NCBI GenBank assembly: GCA_964523395.1
Contig: CAZFXS010000009.1
Location: 22,235-86,234 of the forward strand
Direction of reading: 5' to 3'
Source of the DNA: an uncultured Chlorobiaceae bacterium
Lineage (GTDB): Bacteria; Bacteroidota; Ignavibacteria; UBA10030; SZUA-254
DNA length: 64,000 nucleotides
Shown here: piece by piece, positions 676 through 31,877 of the stretch
Position numbering within the stretch: position 1 is the first letter of the stretch
Layout of the letters: every line of letters begins with the position of its first letter
Translations under genes and position numbers: made by a program
Notes under the pieces: generated by a model
The model's database searches: none
What the model saw: only the letters and a program-made list of their open reading frames with translations
What the model was told of the DNA's origin: nothing

Positions 676-748
676 TGCCCGGTGGTGTAATTGGTAACAC
701 ACTAGACTCTGGATCTAGGTAGTCCAGGTTCGAGTCCTGGCCGGGCAG
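676..748 (+). tRNA. tRNA-Gln (anticodon CUG), 73 nt, CCA not encoded
   Basis: Manual cloverleaf: acceptor 676-682/741-747 with U1:A72 and G73 discriminator (Gln identity-like). D-stem GTGT/ACAC. Anticodon stem CTAGA/TCTAG with loop CTCTGGA (T33, anticodon CTG, G37). T-arm CCAGG-TTCGAGT-CCTGG. Confidence 0.85.
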
Positions 749-755
749 CTTGAAA

Positions 756-5700: not shown

Positions 5701-5802
5701 AAAAGCCGGATAATGTTTAAGCTGACTAAAAGCTGTTGCAGAAAACATTAGCAGAAAAAAAACAACAAAAAGTTGCGTCACGGAGGATTGCGATTTCCTC
5801 AA
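2782..5802 (-). CDS. T9SS-secreted multidomain protein: GH18 chitinase-like catalytic domain, poly-Pro linker, FN3, Cna-B/SdrD-like domain, two GWN...GYW modules, Por-type CTD
   Basis: Signal peptide. GH18 catalytic motif YDGVDVDWEGP (DxxDxDxE). PPPPPP linker. FN3 (SYRVQVS...YHWRV). C-terminal QNYPNPFNNSTVISFSV...VYYYRL sorting domain. Confidence 0.88.
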   Translation of the reverse strand: MRKSQSSVTQLFVVFFLLMFSATAFSQLKHYPAFESNQSQPPAQEESASSASMFVTAYYPDWSIWTLKPWMVDYSAITHIIHFSADPDASTPPYFSPITKASDSLKLQYGNGNNDRSINFQDSLIHYSHKNGVKALLCIGGIYGNSDAQMDQVCNDINKIRVFVGAISSYCKRKGYDGVDVDWEGPNNQTDFINLLTVLRDTLNTWPTPGIITAAVYSFISNSYHIPTMAEKLDQITVMNYDQGTSTYAGFNAPLKRGECAYNGGNWTAWTLADHGPQNWINAGFPKSKIAMGIPFYGWEFSGVDGPCQLRNGGQWYRSYANALSYLSQYPNSYRWDDSSKVPYLSFTDGSGVKHMVSYDDSVSIAYKIDYAKNLGIGGVMIYELHAGWVQNNPAGQRDPLLQALKKAMAGLIVPPPPPPGVPTLNSPANGANELPIPVTISWNASSGATSYRVQVSLSSSFSTLLVDQSGVTGTSYQLSNLNFGTAYHWRVNASSTNGTSNWSAIRNFSTITAALPKIKGQLYFDSNQNRVKDTNEPAMAGWNVTVIGPVTDSELTDSSGWYYFYDLPNGSYTVDVEPPPLWTQTYPPSSGSYSVTVTDNSSSSNSTFGMYSSQAFSFPVDKQWNIVSVPLRLADFTKTTIFPLAITDAYSFHDGYNVENVLENGPAYWVKMTMAHQVWMAGTAFTADTVNVSPGWNFIGSVSSAIPVANLFSIPAGIITGNVFGYSRGNYITSVINPGKGYWVQASQPGKIVISSLVTAPPKEQHSFDLNTLNSITITTDQGEAQSLYFGADPDLLGENRNFELPPPPPHGVFDVRFSSATSNGSIARIINPAGTRSVEMPITMSSVSYPVTIEWNVKDANEVYTLSVGNNEPLVLTGAGKTVIYGEANGGTGPETQTMMLVASNRELAGVPSSFTLGQNYPNPFNNSTVISFSVPVASHVTLEVYSMIGERVATIVDQAMEIGSYSVPFDASKLSSGVYYYRLSAFNGSTEHVVKTNRMLLLK

Positions 5803-6123: not shown

Positions 6124-9100
6124 TTATTTCACCAGCATCATTTTGTTTACTCTTACAAAGGGTTCAAGAGCCAACGCTGATCCCTGGTCATCCACTCTTT
6201 GCGCCGTAAAGCGATAGTAATATATACCTGAGGGCAGCCCACCCGCATTAAAGAGCACCTCAATTTTCCCGGCACTCATTTGCTGGCCGTTGTAAACAAC
6301 AGATACTTCCTGGCCAAGTGCGTTATACACTTTCAGGTACACAACGGAAGGATTCGCAAGGTCAAACCCGATTGTGGTTGAAGGATTAAACGGGTTGGGA
6401 TAATTCTGATAGAGCGCAAACGTACCCGGAACTGTTGAAGGCGGTTCTTCAACACCTGTCGACTGATCTATATGCAGTGCAAGTGAATCCGGGGTAATTG
6501 AACCGCTATACTCGAAGAGGAAGTAGCCATTCTCTTCCTGCGACACTGTAGGATGCGCGGATACCACAAACTTCTGACTGTCTTCAGGGGCTACAACTGC
6601 CTGTTGCGGTGAAATACTGAAGACAGAATTTGTCGAAGTTATGTTGTTGATTTCCAGATTTAACTCGCCATCATTATATACGGTAATAGTATCGGTTTTC
6701 AGTTCTTCGGGCTGAACCACTCCAAAATTTACAGGTATGGTTCTGTGCCGTAAATTTGCCGCACGCACACCCTTACCGGTCACTAACGCTGTATCCGTCG
6801 AGTTACCTGAATTTATAACAATAGCAATCTTAGCATCGTATGTCGTGCGCTGATTCGGCGTAAACGTGACATAGATTTTCTTGCTTGCCCCCGGCGCGAT
6901 TGTTGTTCCGGTAAACGCGACTTCATACTGCGACAGTGATGACTGAATTTGAGACAGTGTAACGGTTGAAGAGCCGGGGTTTGAAATTGTGATCGAATCT
7001 TTCTTGGAATATCCCACTCCAACCTTACCGAAATTAATATTGTTTGGTGAAGCAACAACCGCGGCCGACACTGAAGTTGTGGTAAAACTTCTTACTTCCG
7101 AGAACTCGCTGGTCCCTGCAAGGTTCTTGGCGTTTACCCTCCAATAGTACAAGCTATTCAGATTCAAGTCAGCTAACTGAAATGAGTTGGTGGGTACAGT
7201 AGAATCATCCACAACAATATTTCCAAAAAGCGCATCCGTTGATACCTGTACTCTGTAGGTTACCGCGCCAATGGCAGCATCCCAGTTCAGGATTGCATTC
7301 ACAGGCACATTTGTTGCCTGGTTCGCCGGGGAATTAAGAACCGGTAAGCCGAGCGGGACCGCGGCGGCATTCGGACTCACACGGAAGTCGTCAAAAATTA
7401 CCGGGGTTGTTGAAACATATCCGCGAATCGCAAAATACCAGGATGGCGCTGTATGTACAGTATCCATCGCACTGAGAATTATGTCTCCATTGACAAGAAC
7501 ACACATTGTTTTATTGTCCGCAAGGATACGGAACGTCACAACGTCACCGACACGGATTTCATAATTTACCGACGCAAGCACTGTTCCATTCGCGTATCCG
7601 TTCGTTACTCTGTGAATTTCAACAAGGTCATTTCCGCTCTGTTCAGTAAACCGGAGACGATAACCCGATCCGGCTGCAAAATCTTTGCTGTTCATTTTCG
7701 CGTACAGCAGCAGAGAAGCATTTGAATAGTTACCGCTCTTTTGCTGAAGCGTAACGCTTGCCTCAGTTCCGCTGGTCATCATGCTGTCCCAGACCACACC
7801 CCCCATCGTATTTACTGTAAGACCATTGGTTGCCTGAAGCTTACTACTCACCACAGACATTATACCACCGGTATAGTTATCGAATGTTTTCCATCGGTTC
7901 GTTCCTGGCAAAGGACCGTCGGGACGGTTAAAATCATCCCTCAGGACAGCCGGATAAGGTATTGTATCCGCCGGAACAGGAGGTTGTCCGGAGCTAACAA
8001 CTGTAAAGCTCCACGCATTCGACCAATTACCAGAGCCAGCCGAGTTAGAGGCATTGACTCTCCAATAGTAGGTCGTACTGTTGAGTAAGTTGTTCACCGC
8101 ATACGATGTCCCAGTTATTCCACTCTGGTCAACAACCGTTGTCCCGAACGTTGAACTTGTTGATACCTGTACACGATAACCGGTCGCTGCGCTGACCGAA
8201 CCCCAGCTTACCGTCGTACCTGTCGGTACATCCATCGTTCCGTCCGCAGGGGTGTTCAATACCGGTACTGCCGGCGGCTGAACAGGCGGTGGCGGCGGCG
8301 GTGGTGTTACTGTCCCTCCTACCGCTTTCTTTAATGCCTGCAATAACGGGTCTCTCTTCCCTGCCGGATTTGACTGTACCCATCCTCCGACTAACTCATA
8401 AATCATCAATCCGCCAATTCCTAAACTCTTCGCATAATTAACCTTATACGCTATACTCACTGAGTCATCATACGATACCATATGCTTTACTCCGCTGCCG
8501 TCGGTAAACGACAGATACGGCACCTTCGATGAGTCATCCCAACGATAGGAGTTCGGATATTGCGCAAGGTAATTCAACGCATCAGAATAACTTCTATACC
8601 ACTGTCCGCCATTACGCAACTGACACGGACCATCGACTCCGCTAAATTCCCATCCATAGAACGGTACACCCATACCAATCTTTGACTTCGGGAAGCCTGC
8701 ATTGATCCAGTTCTGAGGGCCATGATCTGCCAGTGTCCAGGCTGACCAGTTTCCTCCTGACGCTTTACATTCACCCGGCTTCAACGGACTGTTAAATCCG
8801 GCATAGGTTGATGTTCCCTGGTCGTAGTTCATGACCGTAATCTGATCAAGTTTTGCCGCCATTACAGGAACATCGTACGAGTTGGAGATAAACGAGTAGA
8901 CTGCCGCCGTGATTATACCCGGTGTCGGCCAGCTATTCAACGTATCGCGTAAGACTGTCAGGAGGTTATTATAATCCGTCTTATTGTTCGGTCCTTCCCA
9001 GTCCACATCCACGCCGTCATATCCTTTGCGTTTGCAATACGACGAGATCGCACTTACGAACACCCGTATTTTATTGATATCGCTGCAGATCTGGTCCATG

Positions 9101-11205
9101 TTCGCATCTGAGTTGCCGTAGATACCTCCGATACATAACAACGCTTTAACGCCGTTCTTATGAGCATAATGGATCAGTGAATCCTGAAAATTGATACTAC
9201 GGTCGTTATTGCCGTTGCCATATTGCAGTTTTAATGAATCGCTTGCTTTGGTGATCGGACTGAAATACGGTGGTGTGGAAGCATCCGGGTCGGCACTGAA
9301 GTGGATGATATGTGTCATTGCCGAATAATCCACCAGCCATGGCTTCATTGTCCAGATTGACCAATCCGGATAATATGCCGTTACAAACATGTTGCCGCTG
9401 GTTGTATCAGGTGGCGGCGGGGGAGGCGCTGAAGCTACTGTAGTGAAACTGCGTACTGCCGACCAGCCGCTTGTGCCGATGCTGTTGCGCGCGTTAACGC
9501 GCCAGTAGTATACCGTGCTGTTAGTTAAACCGCCTAATGTAAATGATGTACCCGCTATTCCGCTTTGATCTACAAGGTTTGAGCTAAATGAAGAACCCGT
9601 TGAAACCTGCACCTGATAATCAGCCGCCCCGCTGACAGATCCCCAGCTTAACGATGTGCTCAATTGAACTCCGGTAGCACCATTTGACGGTGAAGCCAGC
9701 ACCGGTGCTGATGGCGGTTGCGGCACGGGGGGCGCAACAGTTACGAAGCTCCACGCATTGGACCAATTACCAGAGCCGGCCGAGTTGGAAGCATTGACTC
9801 TCCAATAGTAGGTCGTACTGTTGAGTAAGTTGTTCACCGCATACGATGTCCCAGTTATTCCACTCTGGTCAACAACCGTTGTCCCGAACGTTGAACTTGT
9901 TGATACCTGTACACGATAACCGGTCGCTGCGCTGACCGAACCCCAGCTTACCGTCGTACCTGTCGGTACATCCATCGTTCCGTCCGCAGGGGTGTTCAAT
10001 ACCGGTACTGCCGGCGGCTGAACAGGCGGTGGCGGCGGCGGTGGTGTTACTGTCCCTCCTACCGCTTTCTTTAATGCCTGCAATAACGGGTCTCTCTTCC
10101 CTGCCGGATTTGACTGTACCCATCCTCCGACTAACTCATAAATCATCAATCCGCCAATTCCTAAACTCTTCGCATAATTAACCTTATACGCTATACTCAC
10201 TGAGTCATCATACGATACCATATGCTTTACTCCGCTGCCGTCGGTAAACGACAGATACGGCACCTTCGATGAGTCATCCCAACGATAGGAGTTCGGATAT
10301 TGCGCAAGGTAATTCAACGCATCAGAATAACTTCTATACCACTGTCCGCCATTACGCAACTGACACGGACCATCGACTCCGCTAAATTCCCATCCATAGA
10401 ACGGTACACCCATACCAATCTTTGACTTCGGGAAGCCTGCATTGATCCAGTTCTGAGGGCCATGATCTGCCAGTGTCCAGGCTGACCAGTTTCCTCCTGA
10501 CGCTTTACATTCACCCGGCTTCAACGGACTGTTAAATCCGGCATAGGTTGATGTTCCCTGGTCGTAGTTCATGACCGTAATCTGATCAAGTTTTGCCGCC
10601 ATTACAGGAACATCGTACGAGTTGGAGATAAACGAGTAGACTGCCGCCGTGATTATACCCGGTGTCGGCCAGCTATTCAACGTATCGCGTAAGACTGTCA
10701 GGAGGTTATTATAATCCGTCTTATTGTTCGGTCCTTCCCAGTCCACATCCACGCCGTCATATCCTTTGCGTTTGCAATACGACGAGATCGCACTTACGAA
10801 CACCCGTATTTTATTGATATCGCTGCAGATCTGGTCCATGTTCGCATCTGAGTTGCCGTAGATACCTCCGATACATAACAACGCTTTAACGCCGTTCTTA
10901 TGAGCATAATGGATCAGTGAATCCTGAAAATTGATACTACGGTCGTTATTGCCGTTGCCATATTGCAGTTTTAATGAATCGCTTGCTTTGGTGATCGGAC
11001 TGAAATACGGTGGTGTGGAAGCATCCGGGTCGGCACTGAAGTGGATGATATGTGTCATTGCCGAATAATCCACCAGCCATGGCTTCATTGTCCAGATTGA
11101 CCAATCCGGATAATATGCCGTTACAAACATGTTGCCGCTGGTTTGTGCAAAACTAAAACTGCAAATAATTATTGAGAGGAACAGGGTTGCTAGCATTCTC
11201 TTCAT
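6124..11205 (-). CDS. T9SS-secreted 1693-aa protein with two identical GH18-polyPro-FN3 modules in tandem, an extra FN3, a LamG/lectin-like region, Ig-like/FN3 domains and a Por-type CTD
   Basis: Signal peptide MKRMLATLFLSIIICSFSFA. YDGVDVDWEGP motif appears twice. PPPPPPPVQPP linkers. FN3 motifs YYWRVNA. C-terminal LYQNYPNPFNPSTTIGFDL...IYYYRF sorting domain. Confidence 0.9.
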   Translation of the reverse strand: MKRMLATLFLSIIICSFSFAQTSGNMFVTAYYPDWSIWTMKPWLVDYSAMTHIIHFSADPDASTPPYFSPITKASDSLKLQYGNGNNDRSINFQDSLIHYAHKNGVKALLCIGGIYGNSDANMDQICSDINKIRVFVSAISSYCKRKGYDGVDVDWEGPNNKTDYNNLLTVLRDTLNSWPTPGIITAAVYSFISNSYDVPVMAAKLDQITVMNYDQGTSTYAGFNSPLKPGECKASGGNWSAWTLADHGPQNWINAGFPKSKIGMGVPFYGWEFSGVDGPCQLRNGGQWYRSYSDALNYLAQYPNSYRWDDSSKVPYLSFTDGSGVKHMVSYDDSVSIAYKVNYAKSLGIGGLMIYELVGGWVQSNPAGKRDPLLQALKKAVGGTVTPPPPPPPVQPPAVPVLNTPADGTMDVPTGTTVSWGSVSAATGYRVQVSTSSTFGTTVVDQSGITGTSYAVNNLLNSTTYYWRVNASNSAGSGNWSNAWSFVTVAPPVPQPPSAPVLASPSNGATGVQLSTSLSWGSVSGAADYQVQVSTGSSFSSNLVDQSGIAGTSFTLGGLTNSTVYYWRVNARNSIGTSGWSAVRSFTTVASAPPPPPPDTTSGNMFVTAYYPDWSIWTMKPWLVDYSAMTHIIHFSADPDASTPPYFSPITKASDSLKLQYGNGNNDRSINFQDSLIHYAHKNGVKALLCIGGIYGNSDANMDQICSDINKIRVFVSAISSYCKRKGYDGVDVDWEGPNNKTDYNNLLTVLRDTLNSWPTPGIITAAVYSFISNSYDVPVMAAKLDQITVMNYDQGTSTYAGFNSPLKPGECKASGGNWSAWTLADHGPQNWINAGFPKSKIGMGVPFYGWEFSGVDGPCQLRNGGQWYRSYSDALNYLAQYPNSYRWDDSSKVPYLSFTDGSGVKHMVSYDDSVSIAYKVNYAKSLGIGGLMIYELVGGWVQSNPAGKRDPLLQALKKAVGGTVTPPPPPPPVQPPAVPVLNTPADGTMDVPTGTTVSWGSVSAATGYRVQVSTSSTFGTTVVDQSGITGTSYAVNNLLNSTTYYWRVNASNSAGSGNWSNAWSFTVVSSGQPPVPADTIPYPAVLRDDFNRPDGPLPGTNRWKTFDNYTGGIMSVVSSKLQATNGLTVNTMGGVVWDSMMTSGTEASVTLQQKSGNYSNASLLLYAKMNSKDFAAGSGYRLRFTEQSGNDLVEIHRVTNGYANGTVLASVNYEIRVGDVVTFRILADNKTMCVLVNGDIILSAMDTVHTAPSWYFAIRGYVSTTPVIFDDFRVSPNAAAVPLGLPVLNSPANQATNVPVNAILNWDAAIGAVTYRVQVSTDALFGNIVVDDSTVPTNSFQLADLNLNSLYYWRVNAKNLAGTSEFSEVRSFTTTSVSAAVVASPNNINFGKVGVGYSKKDSITISNPGSSTVTLSQIQSSLSQYEVAFTGTTIAPGASKKIYVTFTPNQRTTYDAKIAIVINSGNSTDTALVTGKGVRAANLRHRTIPVNFGVVQPEELKTDTITVYNDGELNLEINNITSTNSVFSISPQQAVVAPEDSQKFVVSAHPTVSQEENGYFLFEYSGSITPDSLALHIDQSTGVEEPPSTVPGTFALYQNYPNPFNPSTTIGFDLANPSVVYLKVYNALGQEVSVVYNGQQMSAGKIEVLFNAGGLPSGIYYYRFTAQRVDDQGSALALEPFVRVNKMMLVK
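8008..11143. repeat. Tandem in-frame duplication inside CDS 6124..11205. Copy A is about 8008-9403 and copy B about 9748-11143, with a 344-bp unique spacer that encodes an FN3.
   Basis: Nucleotide identity starts imperfectly at 8008/9748, is exact from 8051/9791, and ends at 9403/11143 (1353 bp, offset 1740). Checked directly at both ends. Supported mid-repeat by identical antisense ORFs in the track (8129..8383 = 9869..10123; 8574..8774 = 10314..10514). Confidence 0.85.
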
Positions 11206-11628: not shown

Positions 11629-13557
11629 TTACTTACCTGCCAGAACAAATTGCTCCTGAAGATGTATTTTCGGAATTTGCGACGGTATTGAGGTAATTTC
11701 ATCCAATTGAATCTTATATGACCGGAGGATAATCCCATTCACACGCGAAATATTAACAAGCCTCCGAAGAATCTCCGGCTTAATCGAATCACTTGCAATC
11801 AACACCTCATCAATTTTCCTGGTATGGACAAGGCGTTGTAATCTCCAATGTCCCCCGAAAATCGGATACCCGTTGATTCGTTTCCCTTCCAACTGCGGAT
11901 CATCATCAAGGAATCCAACCGGATTATAATCAAGTGTATCATCATGCATCATCCGCTGAATAATAAGAAGTCCTTTGGCATCCGCACCATACACCAGGAC
12001 ATTTTTGTTCCCATGTTTATGTTCACGACGGGAAATATAGTGAAGCACGAGGAACGACACTCGCGCGCCTACGACAAATGAGAGTAGAAAGTAGAAATTC
12101 AACGTTACCAAAGTAAAATTGATTTCACCGAACTGCTTTGGCAAAAACGCAAGAACTGTGTATGTAACAGCTGTTGCGGCAATAACTGTTTTGAGGATTT
12201 TCAACAAATCGCCAATTCCCATCTGACGGAACGAACCTTTGTACAATCCCGCGACAGAAAATATCAAAAGCTGCATTCCAGTTACCAGAGCCAGCACCAC
12301 AAACGTATGCTGATGCAAGCCTTGATCCGAAAATGACGGAAACACTAACCACTGGGCAAGCAGGAACGCGCCGACAATAAAACCCAGGTCCAGGAATCCC
12401 TGAAAGATTGTGCTATTCATCAGCGGCCATTCATACATCGGAAGCAGAACACCGTTGCGGAGAACCGCCATCTCTTTATACCGCAACTGGCTGATGCCAA
12501 TAAACGTGGCGATCGCAACAGTTACCAAAATCAGTGAAGCACCGAAATTATTCGTGATTGTCACGGCAAACGCACCGATACCAAATGCGCACGACACCAC
12601 ATATAATACAAGCACAACACTGCGATGGGAAAGTCCCCGATCAATCAGCCGGTGATGAATATGACCCCGGTCGGGAAGAAACATGGTGACAAGTTTTCCC
12701 AGGAACGACGCCGAATTTTTCTGCTGAGGGAGAATGGAACGGAGCAGTCTTCTGGTCATCGATAATAACGTATCCATAATCGGTAACCCGAGGGCAAGCA
12801 TCGGAACAACAATTGCAAAGGCTGTTGATCCCTTTGTCGAACTCTGAATGGAAAGAATCGCCAAAGAAAATCCTATAAACAAACTTCCTGAATCACCAAG
12901 GAAAATCCTTGCACCGCTGAAATTATAACGGAGAAATCCAAGAATAGCACCACCAAGCAATAATGCCATCATCGCTGTTGTCAGATCTCCTTTCAACAAC
13001 GAAATAGCAAACATTGTAATCGATACAATAAACGAAACGCCGGAAGCCAACCCATCGAGCCCGTCGATAAGGTTAATCGCGTTAGTAATACCGACAACCC
13101 AAATCAGCGTCGCAGGATAATCCAGCCACCCCATGGTCAAAAGATCCGGACTGAACGGATGAGTTATGGCTGAGATTCTGAATCCCGCAAAATACACCAT
13201 GGTCCCTGCGATAACCTGACCAAGAAGTTTCTTACTTGGCGTAAGAGGATGAAGGTCGTCCCATATTCCAAGGAGTAATACCAGCGTCAGCGAAATCACA
13301 AGCATCACGCCTGTATGGGGGCTTAAGCCCGAGAATGTGTGCAGGGATGGATCGAGATATACCGAAACCACCAGAGATAAGAAAAAGCTTGCATATATTG
13401 CCACCCCTCCAAGCCGGGGAATGGGGAGTTTGTGAACCTTGCGTTCATTCGGCTGATCGATAGCGCCAATCCGTTTCGCATAAGAAATCACGAGCGGCGT
13501 CAGCACCAACGACAGGAGAACAGGAACCAAAAAAAGAAAGTAATGCTGGATCAACAT
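11629..13557 (-). CDS. Polyprenyl-phosphate HexNAc-1-phosphate transferase (WecA/MraY family) fused to a C-terminal WbaP-N-terminal-like Rossmann (CoA_binding_3-like) domain
   Basis: N-terminal half has multiple TM helices with WecA/MraY motifs (IDQPNERKVHK, NAINLIDGLDGLASG). C-terminal part has VLVYGADAKG and YNPVGFLDDDP motifs, as in the N-domain of sugar-phosphate transferases, but no WbaP catalytic domain. Confidence 0.8.
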   Translation of the reverse strand: MLIQHYFLFLVPVLLSLVLTPLVISYAKRIGAIDQPNERKVHKLPIPRLGGVAIYASFFLSLVVSVYLDPSLHTFSGLSPHTGVMLVISLTLVLLLGIWDDLHPLTPSKKLLGQVIAGTMVYFAGFRISAITHPFSPDLLTMGWLDYPATLIWVVGITNAINLIDGLDGLASGVSFIVSITMFAISLLKGDLTTAMMALLLGGAILGFLRYNFSGARIFLGDSGSLFIGFSLAILSIQSSTKGSTAFAIVVPMLALGLPIMDTLLSMTRRLLRSILPQQKNSASFLGKLVTMFLPDRGHIHHRLIDRGLSHRSVVLVLYVVSCAFGIGAFAVTITNNFGASLILVTVAIATFIGISQLRYKEMAVLRNGVLLPMYEWPLMNSTIFQGFLDLGFIVGAFLLAQWLVFPSFSDQGLHQHTFVVLALVTGMQLLIFSVAGLYKGSFRQMGIGDLLKILKTVIAATAVTYTVLAFLPKQFGEINFTLVTLNFYFLLSFVVGARVSFLVLHYISRREHKHGNKNVLVYGADAKGLLIIQRMMHDDTLDYNPVGFLDDDPQLEGKRINGYPIFGGHWRLQRLVHTRKIDEVLIASDSIKPEILRRLVNISRVNGIILRSYKIQLDEITSIPSQIPKIHLQEQFVLAGK

Positions 13558-13603: not shown

Positions 13604-14440
13604 TTATGATTCAAATGATTCTGAAATTGCCTGGCGAACATTCCCGTCAGAAGTTCCGCACTTCACGTACCGGGGAAGATTATTTTCATGGATAAATCCT
13701 TCAGTACACTGCGCCGCCGCCGCATCAATCACTGTCCGGAGCTCCCGGATATTGCCGGGCCACTGATACGAACGCAGTAACGCTAAGGTTTCGGGAGCAA
13801 CAGATTCGATTTTGGTGCCGTATCGCTCGTTCGACTCTTCCAAAAACTCTTTGATAAGCATCGGTATATCATCCCTTCGTTCCCTAAGCGGAGGAATATT
13901 GATGCACACCTGCCCCAGCCTGCGTGATGATTCTTCCCGCGTTCTATTGTGCAAGAGTTTTTCATCATACGGAATCGTAACACCTTCTATCGCGCGAACG
14001 TTGATATACACTTCTTCATGTCCCCCGACACGTCTAAAATGCTGCTGCTCAAATGCCGATAATATCAAAGTCTGAACTTGTTTCGGAAGCGACGATAATC
14101 TGTCAAAATAAATCGTTCCTCCGTTTGCCTTCTCGATAACTCCTGCATGAACAATTCTTTCAGGTACATTAGCGTTTTCCCATCCGAAAATTGTTTTCAA
14201 CGTCAGGTGAGATGGCAATTCAGCACAATCCACATGGACAAACTTTCTCTCTGCCCGCGCACTTAACTGATGAATAAGGCTGGCGAGCCATTCCTTACCT
14301 GAACCGCTTTCACCAACAATGCGGACACTTAAATCGCTCACTGCCACTTTCTCGATCGTTTTAAGAATGTTTTGCATGTGAACGCCGTACGCGGAAACCG
14401 AGTCCTTTTCAAGGGACCTTGTAATTGAAGAGTATTTCAT
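13604..14440 (-). CDS. Stand-alone sigma-54-activator-type AAA+ domain protein with no receiver, no HTH, and the GAFTGA loop replaced
   Basis: Begins directly with the EBP AAA+ core (GESGSGKE Walker A, WPGNIRELR). GAFTGA position reads TIFGWENANVPER. Ends without a Fis HTH. Confidence 0.8.
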   Translation of the reverse strand: MKYSSITRSLEKDSVSAYGVHMQNILKTIEKVAVSDLSVRIVGESGSGKEWLASLIHQLSARAERKFVHVDCAELPSHLTLKTIFGWENANVPERIVHAGVIEKANGGTIYFDRLSSLPKQVQTLILSAFEQQHFRRVGGHEEVYINVRAIEGVTIPYDEKLLHNRTREESSRRLGQVCINIPPLRERRDDIPMLIKEFLEESNERYGTKIESVAPETLALLRSYQWPGNIRELRTVIDAAAAQCTEGFIHENNLPRYVKCGTSDGNVRQAISESFES

Positions 14441-14524: not shown

Positions 14525-15472
14525 TTATCTGTCTGTCCTGATACTTTCTGTTGTATCCCAAAGATCAAAACCAAGCGTAAACTGATATAAACGGTCAGTT
14601 AACCTGCTTGGGAGCATACCATATTCCAGATGCCATCTCCCTGCCCGCATACCAATACCATAGGTAGCAGCCTGAAGATCTTCATCAACAATATATCCAA
14701 CCCGGAGAGCCACAAGACGAAGGGCAACATACTCCACACCCCCTTTATACCGCAACCCTTCCTGTTCAAAAACTTTTTCGTTTGCAAAAGATAATGTCAA
14801 ATATGTTTTATTCGCTGAAGCCGGAAAACGTAATGACGCTCCTACCGTAAGTGTCCGCGGCAATTGCTGAGTGGCAAGAAAGGTTGACGTTCCATCAAAA
14901 TTATACCTGATGCCGTTTCCAAAACCGGTAAAAACCGCTCCGTAACTCACCTCGGGTGATGGCGCATAAAAAACTGATACTGATCCTGAAATTGCCCAAA
15001 GGTTCTCTGCGGATGTTGTACCGTACCGTATTCCAAGTCCGGCCCCAACGCAAAATGTCGGGACAATTTCACGAGAATACGCCACATCATAGCCATATTG
15101 CACCGCTTTAAAATCAGCCAGGGGACTGGACTGGAGTGAACCGATATGATTTACCGACAAGCCCACTGCAACAACCTCACCTTTTTTCACAAACAAAGGA
15201 GTTGAGATATTTTCATTCATGATATTGCTTGTCCTGTCAAGGCCATGATTCAAGACAATAGATGTATTCTGCATATAAACCAATGATGCGGGATTCCAAT
15301 ACATGCTATTCACATTATATATGTCCGCCACAAATGCCTCGGCAAAACCCAACGCCCTCGCACCCGCATTAAATGTCCGCGGTCGAAACAATGTAGAGGT
15401 TTGGCCTAGCGATGCTACGGTAACAGTCAGACTGAGCGCCAGAATACTATAAATACTTATTAATCGTTTCAT
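14525..15472 (-). CDS. Outer-membrane beta-barrel protein, possibly a Wzp-like porin partner of the short OPX protein
   Basis: Signal peptide. Alternating hydrophobic beta-strand pattern throughout. Aromatic-rich C-terminal region. Immediately downstream of the wza-like gene. Confidence 0.55.
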   Translation of the reverse strand: MKRLISIYSILALSLTVTVASLGQTSTLFRPRTFNAGARALGFAEAFVADIYNVNSMYWNPASLVYMQNTSIVLNHGLDRTSNIMNENISTPLFVKKGEVVAVGLSVNHIGSLQSSPLADFKAVQYGYDVAYSREIVPTFCVGAGLGIRYGTTSAENLWAISGSVSVFYAPSPEVSYGAVFTGFGNGIRYNFDGTSTFLATQQLPRTLTVGASLRFPASANKTYLTLSFANEKVFEQEGLRYKGGVEYVALRLVALRVGYIVDEDLQAATYGIGMRAGRWHLEYGMLPSRLTDRLYQFTLGFDLWDTTESIRTDR

Positions 15473-15486: not shown

Positions 15487-16203
15487 TTAGTTATTAAAAA
15501 CCTGGAAGAAACCGAAAATAAAAATTGCATCCCGCATAAAGTCCGACAACTCACGGATAATGTTCGCTCGTTTCGGAACAAAAACGGTATCTCCCGGGCG
15601 AATAACAGGAATGGATTCGATATTACCATGCTCCATATACCACGTTAAATCGACTTCGATGGGTTGCCGGTTTTGACCACCTCCTCGCAGAATTTTTATG
15701 TTGCGAAGGTCCGAATCCGGCGTTGTACCACCTGCTGTTGAGAGTACCTCGATGAGTGTAGCATCAGTAGTCAGTGTGTAATTTTCCTGCCTGGTAACCT
15801 CACCAAGCACTGTCACTTTTTGCGGAGCAGAACTGACTACCGTTATTGTAAGTTTTATTTCTCCCTGAATGTATTCAGAAAGCTTTTTGATCATTTGCTG
15901 CGTAAACTGCTCCTTCGTCAAACCGGCCGCCGTTACTTCACCCAACAGAGGTAGCGCAATCTGACCCAGTTCTTTGACTGTCGTCCGGGAATCAAATTCA
16001 GGATAGCCCCACACAGAGAGCTGGATCTGATCACCCTGCCGGATTACGTAATTATCAGATTGTGCCTCAGCCTGTATTGGCCGGCTTCCGGAACGGATAA
16101 TCTGAGTTAAACTATCCTTGGTCATATCTCCGCTACTGCAACCTCCGGCGACAATCGCCAAAAAGAGAGCAAACAGACAAACTTTGTTGATTGATACTTT
16201 CAT
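15487..16203 (-). CDS. wza: Short Wza-like polysaccharide export (OPX) lipoprotein lacking the C-terminal outer-membrane helix
   Basis: Poly_export motif (IRQGDQIQLSVWGYPEF) plus an SLBB-like domain. Start moved to ATG at 16203 (MKVSINKVCLFALFLAIVAGGCSS, lipobox AGGC). The track start at 16305 would sit almost on top of the sigma-54 promoter. Confidence 0.8.
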   Translation of the reverse strand: MKVSINKVCLFALFLAIVAGGCSSGDMTKDSLTQIIRSGSRPIQAEAQSDNYVIRQGDQIQLSVWGYPEFDSRTTVKELGQIALPLLGEVTAAGLTKEQFTQQMIKKLSEYIQGEIKLTITVVSSAPQKVTVLGEVTRQENYTLTTDATLIEVLSTAGGTTPDSDLRNIKILRGGGQNRQPIEVDLTWYMEHGNIESIPVIRPGDTVFVPKRANIIRELSDFMRDAIFIFGFFQVFNN

Positions 16204-16308
16204 ATTATAGAGGATGTTGTTATTAAGGCTAATCTTTGAGTTAATACTACCTGCCGAAGGAAGGAGCCAATAGCCCATTCCACAAACAGTTGAAGGCAGT
16301 GACATTAC

Positions 16309-16324
16309 GGCAAACGCTGTGCCA
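16309..16324 (-). promoter_or_regulatory. Sigma-54 (-24/-12) promoter driving wza-OMP-AAA-GT operon
   Basis: Minus strand reads TGGCAC-AGCGT-TTGCC (GG-N10-GC spacing exact). Predicted transcription start about 16296, giving a 90-nt leader to the 16203 start. Confidence 0.6.
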
Positions 16325-16689
16325 GAAGAAAGATCTACGCACCAAAAATTCCCTAAACGTTTACATTCAGACTACCTGCTCATCCACCACTCGAAACATG
16401 CCATTTCATGCAAATCATAAAAAGTATTTTGAAACAGTAAGGAATGTTTTCCCCGTTTTAATAAATCGATAGCTCAATTTTCCCAAACAAAATCCTGAGC
16501 TTTTTCCTCTACAACGGAAAGGCTTTAATGATGTGTATACTTATTACACAAGCTCAAATTTTACTGCAAATTGCGGTATAAAAATTACACACTTGCCTCA
16601 CCACTCCATTAACTGGATTCCGGCATACTTCCATAAAGGGTTAATACAGGCTCATTTATAGGTTTTATATTACCGTGCCTGTAAAATAA

Positions 16690-16705
16690 TGGCACATCAA
16701 TTGCA
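16690..16705 (+). promoter_or_regulatory. Sigma-54 (-24/-12) promoter driving the plus-strand polysaccharide operon
   Basis: TGGCAC-ATCAA-TTGCA is a perfect consensus. Predicted transcription start about 16717, 40 nt before the GTG start at 16756, which has an AAGAAGGAA ribosome-binding site. Confidence 0.65.
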
Positions 16706-16755
16706 GTATGGGTAACGCATTTTAGTATATCGAAGACAAAAAGAAGGAATTATCT

Positions 16756-18105
16756 GTGCGTTCAGCCCAAATTACCTTGCATGAAATACTGACGGTATTT
16801 CGAAGACGACAACGTTTTTTCTGGATCCCTGTAGTGGTTGTTACAACCTTGTCGATCATCGGTGCATTCATGCTTTCAAATAAATATGAATCATCAACGA
16901 CTATCCTGGTACAGCGCGACGAGGTCCTCAACCCTCTGATCAGCTACCAAATGGCTGTAGCCATGGCTTCTGAGGATCGTTTAAGAACATTTAATGAAAT
17001 CATCTATAGCCGGTTCACAATAAAAAAACTTATCGACAGCCTCGGCATGAGTGGTCAGATCACCAGCGAGGAGGATGATCAGGTACTGGTCAACAGGATT
17101 CAAAACAGCATTGAAACAGAACGGAGAGGCTCGGATTCGTTCCGGATTACATTCACCGATACAGACCCGGCACGAGCACAACGGGCGACTCAGACATTAG
17201 CAAACCTCTTTATCAAAACAGTTCTACAGGTTGAAGGACAACGGAATGAACAGGCTGTTCAGTTTTTTGAAAAAAAGCTGGATGAAATCAGACAAAAATT
17301 TGAAATATCGCAAAAACTTGTCGTCTCCCGCCTTAAATCAAGAATTGATTATCTCCCGGACGAAACGCGACAGATGTATAACCAGGTCGAAGGATTTGAG
17401 ACCAGGATAAATGAAATTGATACCAAGTTCAAAACATATCAGGACGCGCTTACCATTTTAAAAACATTTCCCGCTGCCATACAAACTGAAACCGGAAAGC
17501 AGGCGCTTTACGATCTGCAACGAATGGATATCCCGTTCGCCGCAGAGTTCGGTTTACTGGTATCGCGATATGATGACTACTCCCGAAGATACACGCCGAA
17601 ATATCCCGAGGTAGTCAAGCTCGAGGGACAGATTCTTGAATTACTCCAAAGGGCTCAGAACGCAATTGAAACGGAATTAACAAAACTCCAGCCAAAGCGT
17701 GAAGACTACGAACAACGCCGCTCGCAGTTGGTGGACCGGTTAAAAGAATCTTCTGTCAGCCAGCGTGTTGATGAAGACAAGGAAACAGATTACAGCGTTT
17801 ATAAACGTCTCTACGACGAAATGAAAGTAAAACTCGAGCAGGCGATCATGACGCGCGATCTTGGTTCGGGCGGTGAAAATCAGTTTATGATTATTGACCC
17901 CGCGCTGTTACCGCTCAAGCCCTCAAAACCCAACCGGTTACAGCTTGCAATTGCCGGGTTAGCATTGGGAATTTTCTTCGGACTTGTGGCAATCATTCTC
18001 AAAGAAATGCTTGATACCACCGTCCGGACGCCGCGCGACATTGAAATTTATCAAAAGCCCGTCATTGCGTTCATCACCGACGGACATCAGGAAATACAAA
18101 AATAA
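16756..18105 (+). CDS. Polysaccharide chain-length determinant (Wzz/GumC family, PCP-2a N-terminal transmembrane modulator without kinase domain)
   Basis: N-terminal TM (FFWIPVVVVTTLSIIGAFML). Long coiled-coil periplasmic region. C-terminal TM (LQLAIAGLALGIFFGLVAIIL). Wzz signature region ESSTTILVQ. Confidence 0.85.
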   Translation: MRSAQITLHEILTVFRRRQRFFWIPVVVVTTLSIIGAFMLSNKYESSTTILVQRDEVLNPLISYQMAVAMASEDRLRTFNEIIYSRFTIKKLIDSLGMSGQITSEEDDQVLVNRIQNSIETERRGSDSFRITFTDTDPARAQRATQTLANLFIKTVLQVEGQRNEQAVQFFEKKLDEIRQKFEISQKLVVSRLKSRIDYLPDETRQMYNQVEGFETRINEIDTKFKTYQDALTILKTFPAAIQTETGKQALYDLQRMDIPFAAEFGLLVSRYDDYSRRYTPKYPEVVKLEGQILELLQRAQNAIETELTKLQPKREDYEQRRSQLVDRLKESSVSQRVDEDKETDYSVYKRLYDEMKVKLEQAIMTRDLGSGGENQFMIIDPALLPLKPSKPNRLQLAIAGLALGIFFGLVAIILKEMLDTTVRTPRDIEIYQKPVIAFITDGHQEIQK

Positions 18106-18146: not shown

Positions 18147-18947
18147 ATGCAGCAAGACCAAAATTCAACATCAAACGAATTCCGCCAGCAACCGCAGGAA
18201 GCTTCAGGAACATCCGAGAATACCAAGATTGTTAGGGTTATCAAATCCATTATTGTCAACCCAGAGCTTGGCAAACATGTCGATGAAAGTGTAGTAAAAT
18301 TCCAGTACTACAATGCGTTTAATTACTCACTGTTATCACGTGGTCACGAGAAAGTGAGTATGACGCTCGGTGTGACCTCTCCGAACCAGCGGGAAGGAAA
18401 AACTCTTGTCACATGTAACCTCGCCGTTTCGCTTGCGATGGGATCGAGGAAAAAAACCGTTATTGTCGACTTAAATGTATACAATCCGCGCCTCCACCAG
18501 ATTTTTGGAACCGGCAGAACACCAGGCTTAGCTGAGGCATTACGGAACGGAAATATCCATGTCACCCAGACTCAGATTGAGAACCTGTCGGTACTGACAG
18601 CAGAAAATTTTGTTGAGGTTCAGGAAGGAACCGCAACGTCGGCTCCATTTTCAACATTTTCTTCTCAACCGATTTTGCATCCTGCTTTGAGTTTAGATCA
18701 GTTAGCGGCCTTCCGCGATGTTATTTATTCACTGGAACAGGAATATGACTTTGTCATCGTGGATATGCCTTCACTAAACACGCAGGGATTTCCGGTCCTC
18801 TATGCAAATCAGCTCGACGGGCTGATTGTAGTGGTGAACACAGGAAAAACGAAGCAGGAAGATATCAACGGTATATTCCACCAGATTAACGAGAGGCAAG
18901 TTCTGGGTTTTGTTTTTAACCGCTTTACCGACGGTACTTCCGCCTAA
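18147..18947 (+). CDS. BY-kinase-like P-loop ATPase (CpsD/CapB-type) lacking a C-terminal tyrosine cluster
   Basis: Walker A SPNQREGKT. Walker A' TVIVDLN. Walker B FVIVDMPSL. The C-terminus ...FNRFTDGTSA has no Tyr-rich tail. Confidence 0.75.
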   Translation: MQQDQNSTSNEFRQQPQEASGTSENTKIVRVIKSIIVNPELGKHVDESVVKFQYYNAFNYSLLSRGHEKVSMTLGVTSPNQREGKTLVTCNLAVSLAMGSRKKTVIVDLNVYNPRLHQIFGTGRTPGLAEALRNGNIHVTQTQIENLSVLTAENFVEVQEGTATSAPFSTFSSQPILHPALSLDQLAAFRDVIYSLEQEYDFVIVDMPSLNTQGFPVLYANQLDGLIVVVNTGKTKQEDINGIFHQINERQVLGFVFNRFTDGTSA

Positions 18948-18955: not shown

Positions 18956-19123
18956 ATGATTACCCTCGGCGGCATGCTCGGATTGATGATACTTGCAATC
19001 ATCATCGGAAAAAGAACAAAAGCAATCTATCCGTCATCATACATCATCATTGTCTTTCTGGTCCTCGCTCAGGTTATTTTGGTGTTGTATGCGATGTTTA
19101 CAATGTCCGAACCTAAACCTTGA
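18956..19123 (+). CDS. Unannotated 55-codon ORF for a small two-TM hydrophobic protein (MITLGGMLGLMILAIIIGKRTKAIYPSSYIIIVFLVLAQVILVLYAMFTMSEPKP)
   Basis: ATG 8 nt after the kinase stop. Same reading frame as the downstream Wzy-like gene, separated from it by TGA at 19121-19123 plus 9 codons. No clear ribosome-binding site. Confidence 0.3.
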   Translation: MITLGGMLGLMILAIIIGKRTKAIYPSSYIIIVFLVLAQVILVLYAMFTMSEPKP

Positions 19124-25690: not shown

Positions 25691-26567
25691 TGAACTTGAC
25701 ATAGTACGGGAACCGTCGATACGACCTCAGGAGAATCTGAAGGTCCTGATCTATCATCGCATCCTTGATGATCCGCAAACATGCAACGAAGAAAGAGCCA
25801 TGTGCGTGCAGACGGACGAATTCAGGAACCAGCTTGCATTGCTGGAACGCTGGGGGTTTACGACTATCACGTTTCATGATTACCGTCTCTATCTTGAGGG
25901 CGCACTGAATCTTCCGCGCAAGCCAATCATCCTTACTTTTGATGACGGGTATGATGATATTTACAGAAATGCATTCCCGCTTCTTCAGGAGTTTGGAATG
26001 AAAGCGGTCGTATTTGCCATTGCGGACAGTCAAATAAAGACAAACACCTGGGATGCGTTCAACGGTGGCCCTTCACGACCGTTGATGAACCCTCAGCAGA
26101 TCCTTGAGCTTCATACTGCAGGATTCGAAATCGGCTCTCATTCATTATCTCATCCCGATTTGTCTTCTGTCTCAAAAGAAATTGTGTGGGAAGAAATTTC
26201 CCGATCGCGCATGTTGCTGGAAATCCTTCTCAATGCGCATGTTGAAAGTTTCGCCTATCCGTATGGTCTGACAACCGAGTCTGTTAAACGGATGGTTGCT
26301 GACGCTGGCTACACCACAGGTTGCGGTGTTTATTCCGGGCCGGCAAGATTCGGCGAAGATCCGTTTGACATCAGACGCATTCTCATCACCAACGGCATAG
26401 GAACACTTGGATTTGCCCTGCGCGTCCTTTCTCCGTATGAATACTACGGATGGTTCAAATGGAAGCTGAAAAAATTTATTGCACCATTAAATAATTCCAG
26501 ACCGCAGGCGTACGCACCACTGTCAGCCGGTACCCCCTCCGCACCATCTTCGGGGAAAGTTCTATGA
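25680..26567 (+). CDS. Polysaccharide deacetylase (CE4 / NodB-homology domain)
   Basis: [10 protein letters not shown] (motif 1), [13 protein letters not shown] (His motif). Start set to ATG 25680 (METNELD). The track ORF start at 25569 lies inside the upstream acetyltransferase. Confidence 0.85.
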
Positions 26568-27931
26568 ATACCAGTCAGTCATATACAAAGCTCCCGGTTG
26601 AGGAAAGTTTTCATCCTGCGAACGGACAGATAGCTTCACAACAATTGGAATTACGGCCCGCGGCAAGCTTTGAGGAAATCGCATCGTTGCGTGAAGAATG
26701 GAATTCCTTAGTAACAGAATCTTCATCGACGATATTTCAGACATACGAATGGCTCTCGACATGGTGGGATTATTTCGGCAAGCAACACGGGCGCACACTG
26801 CAGCTTCTTCTCATTTACGACGATCAACGGCTGGTAGGAATCGCGCCGTTATTTGTAAAGACAGCTTACATTTTCGGCAGGCCGGCATACCGATGCCTTT
26901 GTCTGGTGGGATCTGGAGATGCGTTTAATCGTTCATTCGGAATGTTTCTTGACGACGGTCCGAGCGATTATCTTGATATTATTGTACATCCGCAATTTAC
27001 GTCCGCGGCAGCGCAACATCTGAGCGAATACCTGAAAAATAATTCTTCTTCATTTGATGAAATAGAATTGCTGAATCTGCCTCAGGGAAGTTTTATACAC
27101 ACGTCACTCCTTCCTGCACTGAGAATATCCGGATATGTGTGCACTGTTACCGAGGCGGATGAGTGCCCACGACTGACAATGAACAGTTCTGTCGACGAGC
27201 TGTTGCATTCTCTTGATGCCAGCATACGGAGACGATTATCACAGGCGATAAAAGCGGCAGCGGAAAAGACCCTTTTCGCACTTCATCCCCCTACATCGCG
27301 CGCAGACGTGATCGCAACACTGGATGAGCTTATGATCCTTCATCAGCGCAGGTGGAGAAAAATGGGATATCCCGGACTCTTTTCAAAAAAGGAATTTTCT
27401 GATTTTCAATTTGCCATCACACGCGCTTTTCTGCCGAACGGCTGGATTTACATTAAGAGAGCCGTTGCTGAAGGCCGCACAGTTGCGGCACGTTTCTGTT
27501 TCATATTCAACGGAAGATTTTATGACTACCTATCCGGCTTCGCAGATGACTCACCGGCCGCAAAGCGCCGGCCGGGAATGGCCGTACTCCTTGCAATGAT
27601 GCAGGAGTTATTCGACAGCAATGTCCGTGAAATAGATTTTCTTCGGGGTGATGAGGCTTATAAGTTCGAGTTAACATCAACATCATTCAAAAATCTTAAT
27701 ATGGTCTCATCACTTCCAACCTCGAGGAGCAGGTTCGAGCAGTTTCTGCTCAACATAGCCCGCGGTAAGTCGTTTATTGCCTACCTCCTTGAACGCGAAT
27801 GGAACCTGCTGAAAGTTCAGTATCACGAACACAATATTCCAAAGTGCCTTTATTACTATGTAAAATTCAGGACAGGACGATTTGTTAACAAATTTTTCCA
27901 AGCGTCAACCGCTCCAGAACAACAGAAGTAA
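26564..27931 (+). CDS. FemAB/CelD-like protein (Acetyltransf_6 / BioF2-like GNAT fold), paralog 1 of 4
   Basis: Motif IFQTYEWLSTWWDYF...LVGIAPLFV is shared with the three paralogs downstream. C-terminal RGDEAYKFEL motif. Confidence 0.75.
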   Translation: MNTSQSYTKLPVEESFHPANGQIASQQLELRPAASFEEIASLREEWNSLVTESSSTIFQTYEWLSTWWDYFGKQHGRTLQLLLIYDDQRLVGIAPLFVKTAYIFGRPAYRCLCLVGSGDAFNRSFGMFLDDGPSDYLDIIVHPQFTSAAAQHLSEYLKNNSSSFDEIELLNLPQGSFIHTSLLPALRISGYVCTVTEADECPRLTMNSSVDELLHSLDASIRRRLSQAIKAAAEKTLFALHPPTSRADVIATLDELMILHQRRWRKMGYPGLFSKKEFSDFQFAITRAFLPNGWIYIKRAVAEGRTVAARFCFIFNGRFYDYLSGFADDSPAAKRRPGMAVLLAMMQELFDSNVREIDFLRGDEAYKFELTSTSFKNLNMVSSLPTSRSRFEQFLLNIARGKSFIAYLLEREWNLLKVQYHEHNIPKCLYYYVKFRTGRFVNKFFQASTAPEQQK

Positions 27932-29133: not shown

Positions 29134-30255
29134 ATGAAAACACTCACATTACTGACAACAGGATTGCAAAAACCCAGCCGGGCCATGGAAGAGGCCGACC
29201 AAACTCCCCGGGCCTCGTTATACGAACAGGAACTTCAAACCGAAATGGCGTATGAGGAATTTATGAACCGGGCACCAGGCATTCGCAAGTTTATTTATAA
29301 GCGATTGCCCGTCCAGGTTGCGCAGGTTATTGAGGCTTTCTTCCAGAGAAAGAAATATGACGTGATTATTTCATGGTCGGACCCCCACGCTCTCCTGTTT
29401 GCGTCAATACTAAAACTTACAAGAGCGAAAGCTCCCCATGTTGCAATGATGTTCTGGATTTCAAAACCAAAAAAGGCGGCGATATTAAAACGGGTTCACA
29501 CACACATTGACAAAATTGTGTTGTGGACATCTAAACACAGAGATTTTGCCATCAATGAACTTGGCATTCCGCCTTCAAAAATCGCGTTCATCAGGTACTA
29601 TGTTGACCAAAAATTCTGGCGACCAATGGACAGGAAGACAGATATGATCTGCTCAGCCGGCGTAGAGATGAGAGATTACCCGACACTTATTGAGGCGATG
29701 AAAGGGCTTGATATCAAATGCCATATCGCTGCCGGGATTGCGCGCGGAAAATTGTTTTCCACCGTCACTGCCATCCAGGAACAGGGCCCGCTTCCCGAAA
29801 CAATTACGGTCGGAAAAATGTCACCAACGGAATTGCGCGATCTCTACGCCCGTTCCCGTTTCGTAGTTATTCCGCTTTTACAATCTGACTCAGATAACGG
29901 ACTGACCGTTTTACTGGAGGCTATGGCAATGGGTAAGGCTGTCATCTGTTCCCGCATCAGGGGCCAGGTCGATGTAATTCAAGAGGGTAAAACCGGAATA
30001 TTCGTCCCACAAGGCGATCCTAAGGCGTTGCGTGAAGCAATTCTCCACCTCTGGAATAATCCCGAGCTCGCTGAACGAATGGGCCGTGAAGGAAGGGCAT
30101 ATATCGAAAAAAATAATACCTGGGATCAATTTGTTCAGAACATCAAACAGATTGTGGAAGAAGTTCATTCTCAGAACACAGCAATCTCAACCAAGAATAG
30201 CGCCAAACAATCTTCATTACCAGTGAATGCAACCGGTTCTACAATATCTTATTGA
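29134..30255 (+). CDS. Glycosyltransferase family 4, tandem paralog B
   Basis: EAMAMGKAVICSRIRGQVDVIQEGKTGIFVPQGDPKALREAI, and overall collinearity with 27956..29116. Confidence 0.75.
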   Translation: MKTLTLLTTGLQKPSRAMEEADQTPRASLYEQELQTEMAYEEFMNRAPGIRKFIYKRLPVQVAQVIEAFFQRKKYDVIISWSDPHALLFASILKLTRAKAPHVAMMFWISKPKKAAILKRVHTHIDKIVLWTSKHRDFAINELGIPPSKIAFIRYYVDQKFWRPMDRKTDMICSAGVEMRDYPTLIEAMKGLDIKCHIAAGIARGKLFSTVTAIQEQGPLPETITVGKMSPTELRDLYARSRFVVIPLLQSDSDNGLTVLLEAMAMGKAVICSRIRGQVDVIQEGKTGIFVPQGDPKALREAILHLWNNPELAERMGREGRAYIEKNNTWDQFVQNIKQIVEEVHSQNTAISTKNSAKQSSLPVNATGSTISY

Positions 30256-31837: not shown

Positions 31838-31877
31838 TTTACTATCGTCCATGCGACGATAATCACTAAACGTCTTG

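Follow-up and report, generated by a model that had tools for sequence, protein, structure and literature searches.

How are the two arms of a polysaccharide locus controlled when both are transcribed outward from a single spacer, and which protein activates them? The question is raised by a 64,000-nucleotide stretch of DNA from an uncultured Chlorobiaceae bacterium (contig CAZFXS010000009.1; "the window" below is this whole stretch), in which a gene for a Wza-like polysaccharide export protein and a gene for a Wzz-like chain-length determinant stand back to back. An earlier sequence-only reading had placed a divergent pair of sigma-54 promoters between them, with an inverted repeat as a candidate enhancer and two linked genes for activator-type AAA+ proteins. 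From a comparison of the window with related loci, we put at about 75% the probability that the spacer is a divergent sigma-54 control region with a shared enhancer, driven by an enhancer-binding protein (EBP). The features on which the argument turns are the following:

16204–16755: divergent control region, 552 bp, between the wza-like and wzz-like genes
16324–16309, minus strand: P-minus, a sigma-54-type −24/−12 element, TGGCACAGCGTTTGCC, upstream of the wza-like ATG at 16203
16690–16705, plus strand: P-plus, a consensus sigma-54 −24/−12 element, TGGCACATCAATTGCA, upstream of the wzz-like GTG at 16756
16532–16550: distal palindrome TGTGTAT-ACTTA-TTACACA, a conserved block and candidate enhancer (upstream activating sequence)
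16573–16591: proximal palindrome GCGGTAT-AAAAA-TTACACA, ≈109 bp upstream of the P-plus −24
1282–2634, plus strand: canonical EBP and candidate activator, an AAA+ protein with GAFTGA and a C-terminal Fis-type helix-turn-helix (HTH) domain, HTH_8
13604–14440, minus strand: degenerate EBP-like AAA+ protein of 278 aa, third gene of the wza operon

Both promoter elements combine GG at −24 with GC at −12 in the exact spacing, and each faces its own gene at a leader-length distance. P-plus matches the consensus TGGCAC-N5-TTGCW in 16 of 16 positions, the sole exact match in the window, and P-minus in 15 of 16. The 3' end of P-plus lies 50 nt from the GTG at 16756, itself preceded by GAAGGA; transcription would be expected to start near 16716, leaving a leader of ≈40 nt. 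On the minus side, 105 nt separate the end of P-minus from the ATG at 16203, and a transcript expected to begin near 16298 would have a leader of ≈93–95 nt. The three elements proposed in the sequence-only reading, including TGTGTA-N7-TACACA at 16532–16550, are all in the sequence where they had been placed, and the distances of 90 and 50 nt given there for the minus and plus sides are roughly right: the plus value is exact, and the minus value fits the distance from the expected transcription start (≈93 nt) rather than that from the element (105 nt). A start at 16305, which would give a longer wza-like open reading frame (ORF), was rejected because the relatives call a 238-aa product.

A search of the window for TGGCAC-N5-TTGCW with at most one mismatch returned six matches, compared with 2.47 expected, and four of 100 shuffles reached six. 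The four matches other than P-plus and P-minus fall within coding sequence. By arithmetic from the window count, ≈0.02 matches are expected per 552-nt spacer, so that two outward-pointing sites are already unlikely to have arisen by chance. When the roughly 128,000 positions of the window were ranked by a weighted −24/−12 score, P-plus came first and P-minus second. Weaker −24/−12 sites were sought upstream of two GH18 genes with sorting domains of the type IX secretion system (T9SS), of the 2951-aa gene, of the EBP gene and of the AAA+ gene, and also in the gap at 18948, and none rose above background. P-plus and P-minus are the only good −24/−12 matches in the intergenic DNA of the window.

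Close homologues of the Wzz-like protein number in the hundreds among metagenome-assembled genomes of the Ignavibacteria type. For comparison we used 79 loci from a profile search of species-representative genomes, which by their record titles belong to Ignavibacteria/Ignavibacteriales, Balneolales/Balneolaceae (including cultured Gracilimonas) and Kryptoniota. The divergent wza/wzz arrangement is kept in nearly all of these loci. A strict motif, in which GG and GC were obligatory and at least nine of ten core bases had to match 10–110 nt upstream of wzz, was present in 42 of 78 loci, compared with a background of 10 matches per 780 kb of flanking DNA. The loci that seemed to lack it proved to carry the element with its −12 C replaced by T or A, as in TGGCACATAAATTGTG. 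With the motif relaxed to.GG[CT]A[CT]-N5-TTG (TGGCAY-N5-TTG), for which the background is 0.0083 per 150 nt, 75 of 80 loci (the window counted) had a match upstream of wzz, at 25–78 nt from its start codon, and 68 of 75 had one upstream of the divergent wza. Only two matches were in the wrong orientation, and the −12 lay at a median of 52 nt from the start codon on the plus side and 64 nt on the minus side. The exact spacing, the fixed orientation and the leader-length distance are as a promoter predicts, rather than a chance match or a symmetric operator.

The footprint of conservation within the spacer points the same way. In an alignment of the window spacer with those of five relatives (six genomes in all, with 64–81% identity in Wzz), there are only four conserved blocks, namely P-minus, the two palindromes and P-plus, and both promoter elements are invariant. 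An Rfam scan of 16100–16900 with E values up to 1 returned no RNA families, so the conserved blocks are not explained by a known riboswitch or leader. Across the orthologous promoters of the larger set, TGGCAY and TTG are invariant while the −12 C varies: the −12 dinucleotide on the wzz side is GC in 43, GT in 19 and GA in 13 loci (n = 75), and on the wza side GC in 14, GT in 38, GA in 13 and GG in 3 (n = 68). A relaxation of the −12 rule specific to this lineage may account for the non-C base. The core of the sequence-only reading, two divergent sigma-54 promoters serving the two arms, is thus strongly supported by conserved sequence, position and orientation, and we regard both elements as very probably genuine sigma-54 promoters.

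Between the promoters, the two palindromes share the consensus TGTGTAA-N5-TTACACA, and their centres are 41 bp apart in the window. Measured from its centre, the distal copy is ≈150 bp upstream of the −24 of P-plus, and the −24 of P-minus is ≈218 bp away. The distances between the palindromes and the plus promoter recur in many loci of the Ignavibacteria type, at ≈108 and ≈150 nt. Matches to the palindrome are enriched 8- to 12-fold in the spacers and cluster 100–180 nt upstream of the P-plus −24, and the spacings of the pairs cluster at ≈32–36, 41–43 and 61–71 bp, or roughly three, four and six helical turns. When perfect 5+5 palindromes were enumerated, no pattern occurred in more than five loci, and the top patterns belonged to the TGTGTAA/TTACACA family. 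Judged by its layout, such a pair is what paired EBP sites usually look like. The inverted repeat that had been singled out as a candidate enhancer therefore gains support from the comparison, and the candidate is extended to two conserved palindromes with helical-phase spacing and a fixed distance to P-plus. We consider the palindromes to be probably the enhancer. This assignment is less secure than that of the promoters, because the pair is found in only a fraction of the loci and a variant appears in the distant ones (see below).

The arrangement suggests a mechanism in which sigma-54 RNA polymerase would bind the two outward-facing −24/−12 elements of the spacer. P-minus would drive four genes, for the Wza-like exporter, a PorV-like protein, the degenerate AAA+ protein and an initiating glycosyl-phosphate transferase, up to a stop at 11604–11573. 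P-plus would drive wzz, the gene for a tyrosine-kinase-like ATPase, wzy and, at the least, the beginning of the biosynthesis array. A DNA-binding EBP oligomer sitting on the two palindromes, four helical turns apart, would loop to either promoter, and the export and assembly machinery would be switched on jointly and stay silent without the activator. The likeliest activator would be the syntenic canonical EBP at 1282–2634, not the AAA+ protein of the minus operon. What the analysis shows directly are the sequences, their rank in the window, their conserved position and orientation, the domains of the proteins and the synteny; the occupancy by sigma-54, the transcription starts, the identity of the EBP that binds the palindromes and the extent of the transcripts are the parts of this model that we infer from sequence.

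Several observations weigh against this model. By window count alone, the motif excess is weak or marginal. The textbook GG-N10-GC is departed from by a GT or GA at −12 in 32 of 75 P-plus and 51 of 68 P-minus elements. No rpoN gene is present in the 64 kb of the window, to which that search was confined. The palindrome pair was recognisable to a simple matcher in only 21 of 73 loci, and many of the more distant loci have a weak palindrome or none that was detected; those of Balneolales apparently use a variant resembling TGTGAA...TTCACA. In the window genome itself, the right half of the proximal palindrome is perfect and its left half is degenerate. In a search of the rest of the window with up to three mismatches allowed, no copy of the palindrome came up besides the one at 16532, with none upstream of the EBP gene, so that no autoregulatory link is drawn and the palindrome is tied to the EBP by synteny only. 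Finally, 14 kb of DNA, including a terminator and two large genes, separate the EBP gene from the spacer.

The EBP at 1282–2634 has all the parts of a functional activator. The Sigma54_activat domain (224.9 bits) and HTH_8 (47.3 bits) are both matched, the AAA lid is present, and the motifs are intact: Walker A reads GESGTGKE, the sigma-54 contact loop GHEKGAFTGA and Walker B LFDEI. Its N-terminal 140 aa had no match to Pfam Response_reg; by eye there is no obvious phospho-acceptor aspartate, with LLRSQG standing where a receiver has LLD. Many of its homologues are annotated as sigma-54-dependent regulators in Ignavibacteria, which, together with the intact GAFTGA, hints indirectly that the genome encodes sigma-54. 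Orthologues with 55–68% identity stand at the same edge of the gene cluster in all five contigs checked, in the order EBP, convergent GH18/T9SS genes and initiating transferase of the minus arm, and in one related contig the EBP is 14 kb from wzz, matching the window. In addition, eight EBP matches come from contigs equal in length to contigs with a Wzz match. The physical linkage of the canonical activator and the promoters is therefore conserved. We take this EBP as the most likely candidate for the cognate activator, an assignment to which we give slightly less than even odds on the sequence evidence.

The surroundings of the EBP gene are conserved to varying degrees. The two large secreted proteins encoded at 2782–5802 and 6124–11205, both on the minus strand, contain GH18 (chitinase-like) domains, Ig-like repeats and T9SS C-terminal sorting domains. 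Genes of this GH18/T9SS type lie between the EBP and the minus arm in the window and in all related contigs examined (L083–L089), and together with the polysaccharide locus they form what is, by gene order, a conserved supercluster. In three of these contigs (L087–L089), a Response_reg+GerE regulator is encoded directly upstream of the EBP, in two of the three together with PAS histidine kinases. In the window, that place is taken by a tRNA-Gln (CTG) gene (676–749, plus strand), which is followed by a hairpin and T-run and marks the left boundary of the conserved block here.

The second activator-type protein, at 13604–14440, has the Sigma54_activat and AAA_lid_14 domains and keeps Walker A. 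It has neither an N-terminal regulatory domain nor an HTH. Its loop reads FGWENANVPERIVHAG and was aligned against FGYEKGAFTGAVSSKEG of NtrC1 (1NY6); the NtrC1 segment GYEKGAFTGAVS corresponds to GWENANVPERIV, and GAFTGA aligns with NANVPE. Walker B reads YFDRL, with DR in place of DE. GAFTGA is likewise missing in 48 of 48 homologues, and Walker B is D-[K/R/Q/N/H] in all of them, without the DE. The Fis-type HTH is kept in only 4 of 46 complete homologues (L015, L016, L049 and L054). With so few homologues retaining this C-terminal HTH, the family looks like a decayed PspF-like EBP. Its members are ≈265–290 aa long and are encoded ≈2–3 kb upstream of wzz in L001–L079, always as the third gene of the wza operon. 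Sequence matches in the PDB include structures of VpsR. The Arg-Asn pair after Walker A that serves cyclic di-GMP contact in FleQ was not seen by eye in the corresponding KEWLASLIH of the window protein. The claim that two sigma-54 activator-type AAA+ proteins are encoded in the window is borne out, since both ORFs are present and both match Sigma54_activat; the further claim that two activators are linked to the promoters survives only for the complete, syntenic EBP at 1282–2634 and fails for the protein at 13604–14440.

One could nevertheless suppose that the protein at 13604–14440 is the dedicated activator of both promoters, acting in a positive autoregulatory loop. Besides its domain matches and the HTH of the four homologues, its genomic setting speaks for this: the gene is present in 45 of the 65 loci with enough sequence, within the operon under sigma-54 control, and all 45 have both promoters. 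On the other hand, both promoters are kept in 14 of the 20 loci in which the gene is absent, and most homologues have no DNA-binding domain. GAFTGA is reported to be essential for contact with sigma-54 (PMC3162934), which makes this protein very unlikely as an activator. As a functional activator it was rejected on all three counts considered, namely GAFTGA, the Walker B glutamate and the DNA-binding domain. A decoy or modulator subunit that would co-assemble with the canonical EBP, or compete against it at a shared enhancer, is a speculative role to which we assign a low probability. If it held true, the export operon would, through its expression under sigma-54, exert feedback on its own activation, and the protein would represent a new class of in-operon pseudo-EBP regulator extending from Ignavibacteria-like to Balneolales genomes.

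The promoters themselves could be questioned in two ways. That the TGGCAC-N5-TTGC elements are chance occurrences, or operators of an unrelated dimeric protein that binds TGGCA/TGCCA-type sites, might be argued from a window count that barely exceeds the shuffles and from the near-palindromic form of P-minus, TGGCA-N6-TGCC. P-plus, however, is not palindromic, the base after TTG varies between C, T and A while the GG–TTG spacing is exact, and the elements face their genes at leader-typical medians with just the two reversed matches already mentioned. Their occurrence in 75 of 80 and 68 of 75 loci, against a background of 0.008 per 150 nt, excludes chance, and we find this explanation scarcely credible. 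A rather improbable alternative, though a less remote one, is that the sigma-54 promoters are conditional add-ons and that basal or main transcription comes from housekeeping-sigma promoters in the spacer or the array. A scan with the E. coli-type sigma-70 consensus, which may not be that of this lineage, found no match in 16204–16755; we regard the result as uninformative and do not take it as evidence of absence, even though at face value it speaks against such promoters. An array of 35 kb is long for a single transcript, and dual promoters, for sigma-54 and another sigma factor, occur upstream of a Flavobacterium operon (PMC9723704). Against this stand the footprint, in which only the two −24/−12 elements and the two palindromes are conserved in the spacer, and the plus arm, in which a small ORF occupies the sole gap of more than 60 nt. 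A divergent sigma-54 control region remains our preferred reading of the spacer.

Comparable systems are known from other bacteria. The exopolysaccharide (EPS) loci associated with PEP-CTERM and exosortase in Proteobacteria have a bipartite upstream motif, composed of an activator site and a −24/−12 element, together with the NtrC-family EBP PrsR and with PrsK (Haft et al. 2006, PMC1569441). The window resembles the PrsK/PrsR system in that activator-site and −24/−12 motifs are tied to an EPS locus and an NtrC-family EBP. Its Wza-, Wzz- and tyrosine-kinase-like proteins also find their best matches in XrtA/PEP-CTERM NCBIfams, and several FemAB-like proteins are encoded. The scores, however, are all under the curated cutoffs: 94.9 bits against 180 for export, 180.3 against 278.85 for chain length, 89 against 230.65 for the tyrosine kinase and 332.5 against 502.6 for the EBP compared with PrsR. 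The ORFs that were scanned included no exosortase. For sorting, the window has T9SS C-terminal domains rather than PEP-CTERM, its promoters precede export and assembly operons rather than genes for single PEP-CTERM proteins, and its lineage is Ignavibacteria-like rather than proteobacterial. Assignment to XrtA/PEP-CTERM was therefore rejected because of the scores below cutoff and the T9SS tails of the secreted proteins.

Divergent sigma-54 promoter pairs with activator sites in a shared spacer occur in E. coli at zraP/zraSR, with ZraR, and at hyc/hyp, with FhlA. The likeness to the window lies in the back-to-back −24/−12 promoters with EBP sites between them, a layout in which one activator can serve both. 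The targets differ, being genes for metal stress and hydrogenase, and so does the position of the activator gene, which at zraSR belongs to one of the divergent units; in the window the EBP is 14 kb away and the in-operon gene is a degenerate paralogue. Sigma-54 promoters and EBPs have been associated with genes for EPS transport and biosynthesis (Francke et al. 2011, PMC3162934), and RpoN/BerB of Burkholderia provides an example of sigma-54/EBP control of exopolysaccharide genes (PMC5552954). These examples share the sigma-54–EPS theme with the window and come from other phyla; Bacteroidetes/Chlorobi are not mentioned in the main text of Francke et al. (PMC3162934), and a literature search on sigma-54 regulation in Ignavibacteria found nothing relevant.

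EBP homologues with a defective GAFTGA have also been described, namely TyrR, DhaR and HupR (PMC3162934) and VpsR, a polysaccharide regulator of V. cholerae (PMC6158489). The protein at 13604–14440 resembles them in that its AAA+ domain is of the EBP type but has lost the motif for contact with sigma-54, and it resembles VpsR in being attached to a polysaccharide locus. Whereas those proteins work at sigma-70 promoters and have kept their domains for regulation and DNA binding, the protein at 13604–14440 is AAA+-only in most genomes, also has no Walker B glutamate and has its gene downstream of a sigma-54 promoter. Closer in lineage, Flavobacterium belongs to the Fibrobacteres-Chlorobi-Bacteroidetes group. 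In Flavobacterium psychrophilum, −24/−12 promoters are supported by experiment, mutagenesis has confirmed the conserved bases, and the elements lie upstream of cell-surface, gliding and T9SS-related genes (PMC9723704). The genes there are other than those of the window, and neither a divergent pair nor a shared enhancer is described. Since sigma-54 control of EPS genes and divergent sigma-54 pairs are both already established, the present locus, a new example in poorly studied lineages, extends known biology and does not overturn it.

What the comparison offers is a concrete regulatory model for a large polysaccharide and cell-surface locus that is widespread in largely uncultured Ignavibacteria-like and Balneolales bacteria, in which almost nothing is established about the control of transcription. 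The model is that of an all-or-none, enhancer-dependent switch, in which export and assembly genes would be coupled from one 550-bp region. The frequent replacement of the −12 C and the conserved, degenerate in-operon EBP paralogue could inform the evolution of sigma-54 systems. Two cultured strains, Gracilimonas tropica DSM 19535 (L057) and Gracilimonas amylolytica LA399 (L040), conserve the divergent wza/wzz layout, with a TGGCAC-N5-TTG element on each side and the degenerate AAA+ gene, and the architecture can thus be tested at the bench.

The remaining features of the two arms are as follows:

15487–16203, minus strand: Wza-like polysaccharide export lipoprotein, first gene of the minus arm; pepcterm_export 94.9 bits, with EpsY and EpsE, below cutoff
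14525–15472, minus strand: PorV/PorQ-like outer-membrane protein; PorV_fam 86.2 bits, compared with a cutoff of 90
11629–13557, minus strand: initiating sugar-phosphate transferase, last gene of the minus arm; Glycos_transf_4 and CoA_binding_3
11604–11573, minus strand: strong intrinsic terminator that ends the minus arm; 14-bp stem and T-run
16756–18105, plus strand: Wzz/GNVR chain-length determinant, first gene of the plus arm
18147–18947, plus strand: tyrosine-autokinase-like ATPase of the ParA/MinD type
18956–19123, plus strand: small ORF of 55 aa, in the sole plus-arm gap of more than 60 nt
19151–51461, plus strand: tightly packed array with Wzy, FkbM methyltransferase, WecG glycosyltransferase and Wzx-type flippase
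51536–51569, plus strand: strong intrinsic terminator at the end of the plus array; 14-bp stem

The set as a whole is that of a Wzx/Wzy-dependent assembly locus, with Poly_export-type, Wzz/GNVR, eps_fam, Wzy_EPS, Polysacc_synt and Glycos_transf_4 members and several glycosyltransferases. An orthologue of the Wza-like protein carries Poly_export/SLBB. As delimited by its terminator, the predicted minus arm is short, with four genes, and does not cover everything on that side. The PorV/PorQ-like gene lies between the wza-like and AAA+ genes in most related loci, a position that hints at a link of polysaccharide export with outer-membrane components of the T9SS type.

From 16756 to 51461, the genes of the plus arm overlap or are less than 45 nt apart, except for one gap of 203 nt. 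This gap holds the 55-aa ORF, and a gene of 54–56 aa is found at the same place in two relatives. No strong internal terminators were found in the plus arm, and the terminator that had been noted at 51541 is indeed there, as the 14-bp stem at 51536–51569. A single plus transcript of ≈35 kb is plausible, because of the tight packing, the lack of a strong internal terminator and the strong one at the end. Besides the genes listed above, the array includes further glycosyltransferases, a deacetylase, a single-domain response regulator (38511–38879, plus strand) and a 3569-aa T9SS cargo protein. The latter (40210–50919, plus strand) combines a T9SS sorting tail with 11 divergent InlB B-repeat (Flg_new_2) domains, and if the array is one operon, this giant surface protein would be co-expressed with the polysaccharide. 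The array also encodes four FemAB-like Acetyltransf_6 proteins (26564–27931, 31875–34043, 34031–35248 and 35254–36408) and an AMP-binding enzyme (30227–31837), all on the plus strand. This combination of FemAB-like and AMP-binding genes is typical of PEP-CTERM/exosortase EPS loci and is found here beside T9SS sorting signals.

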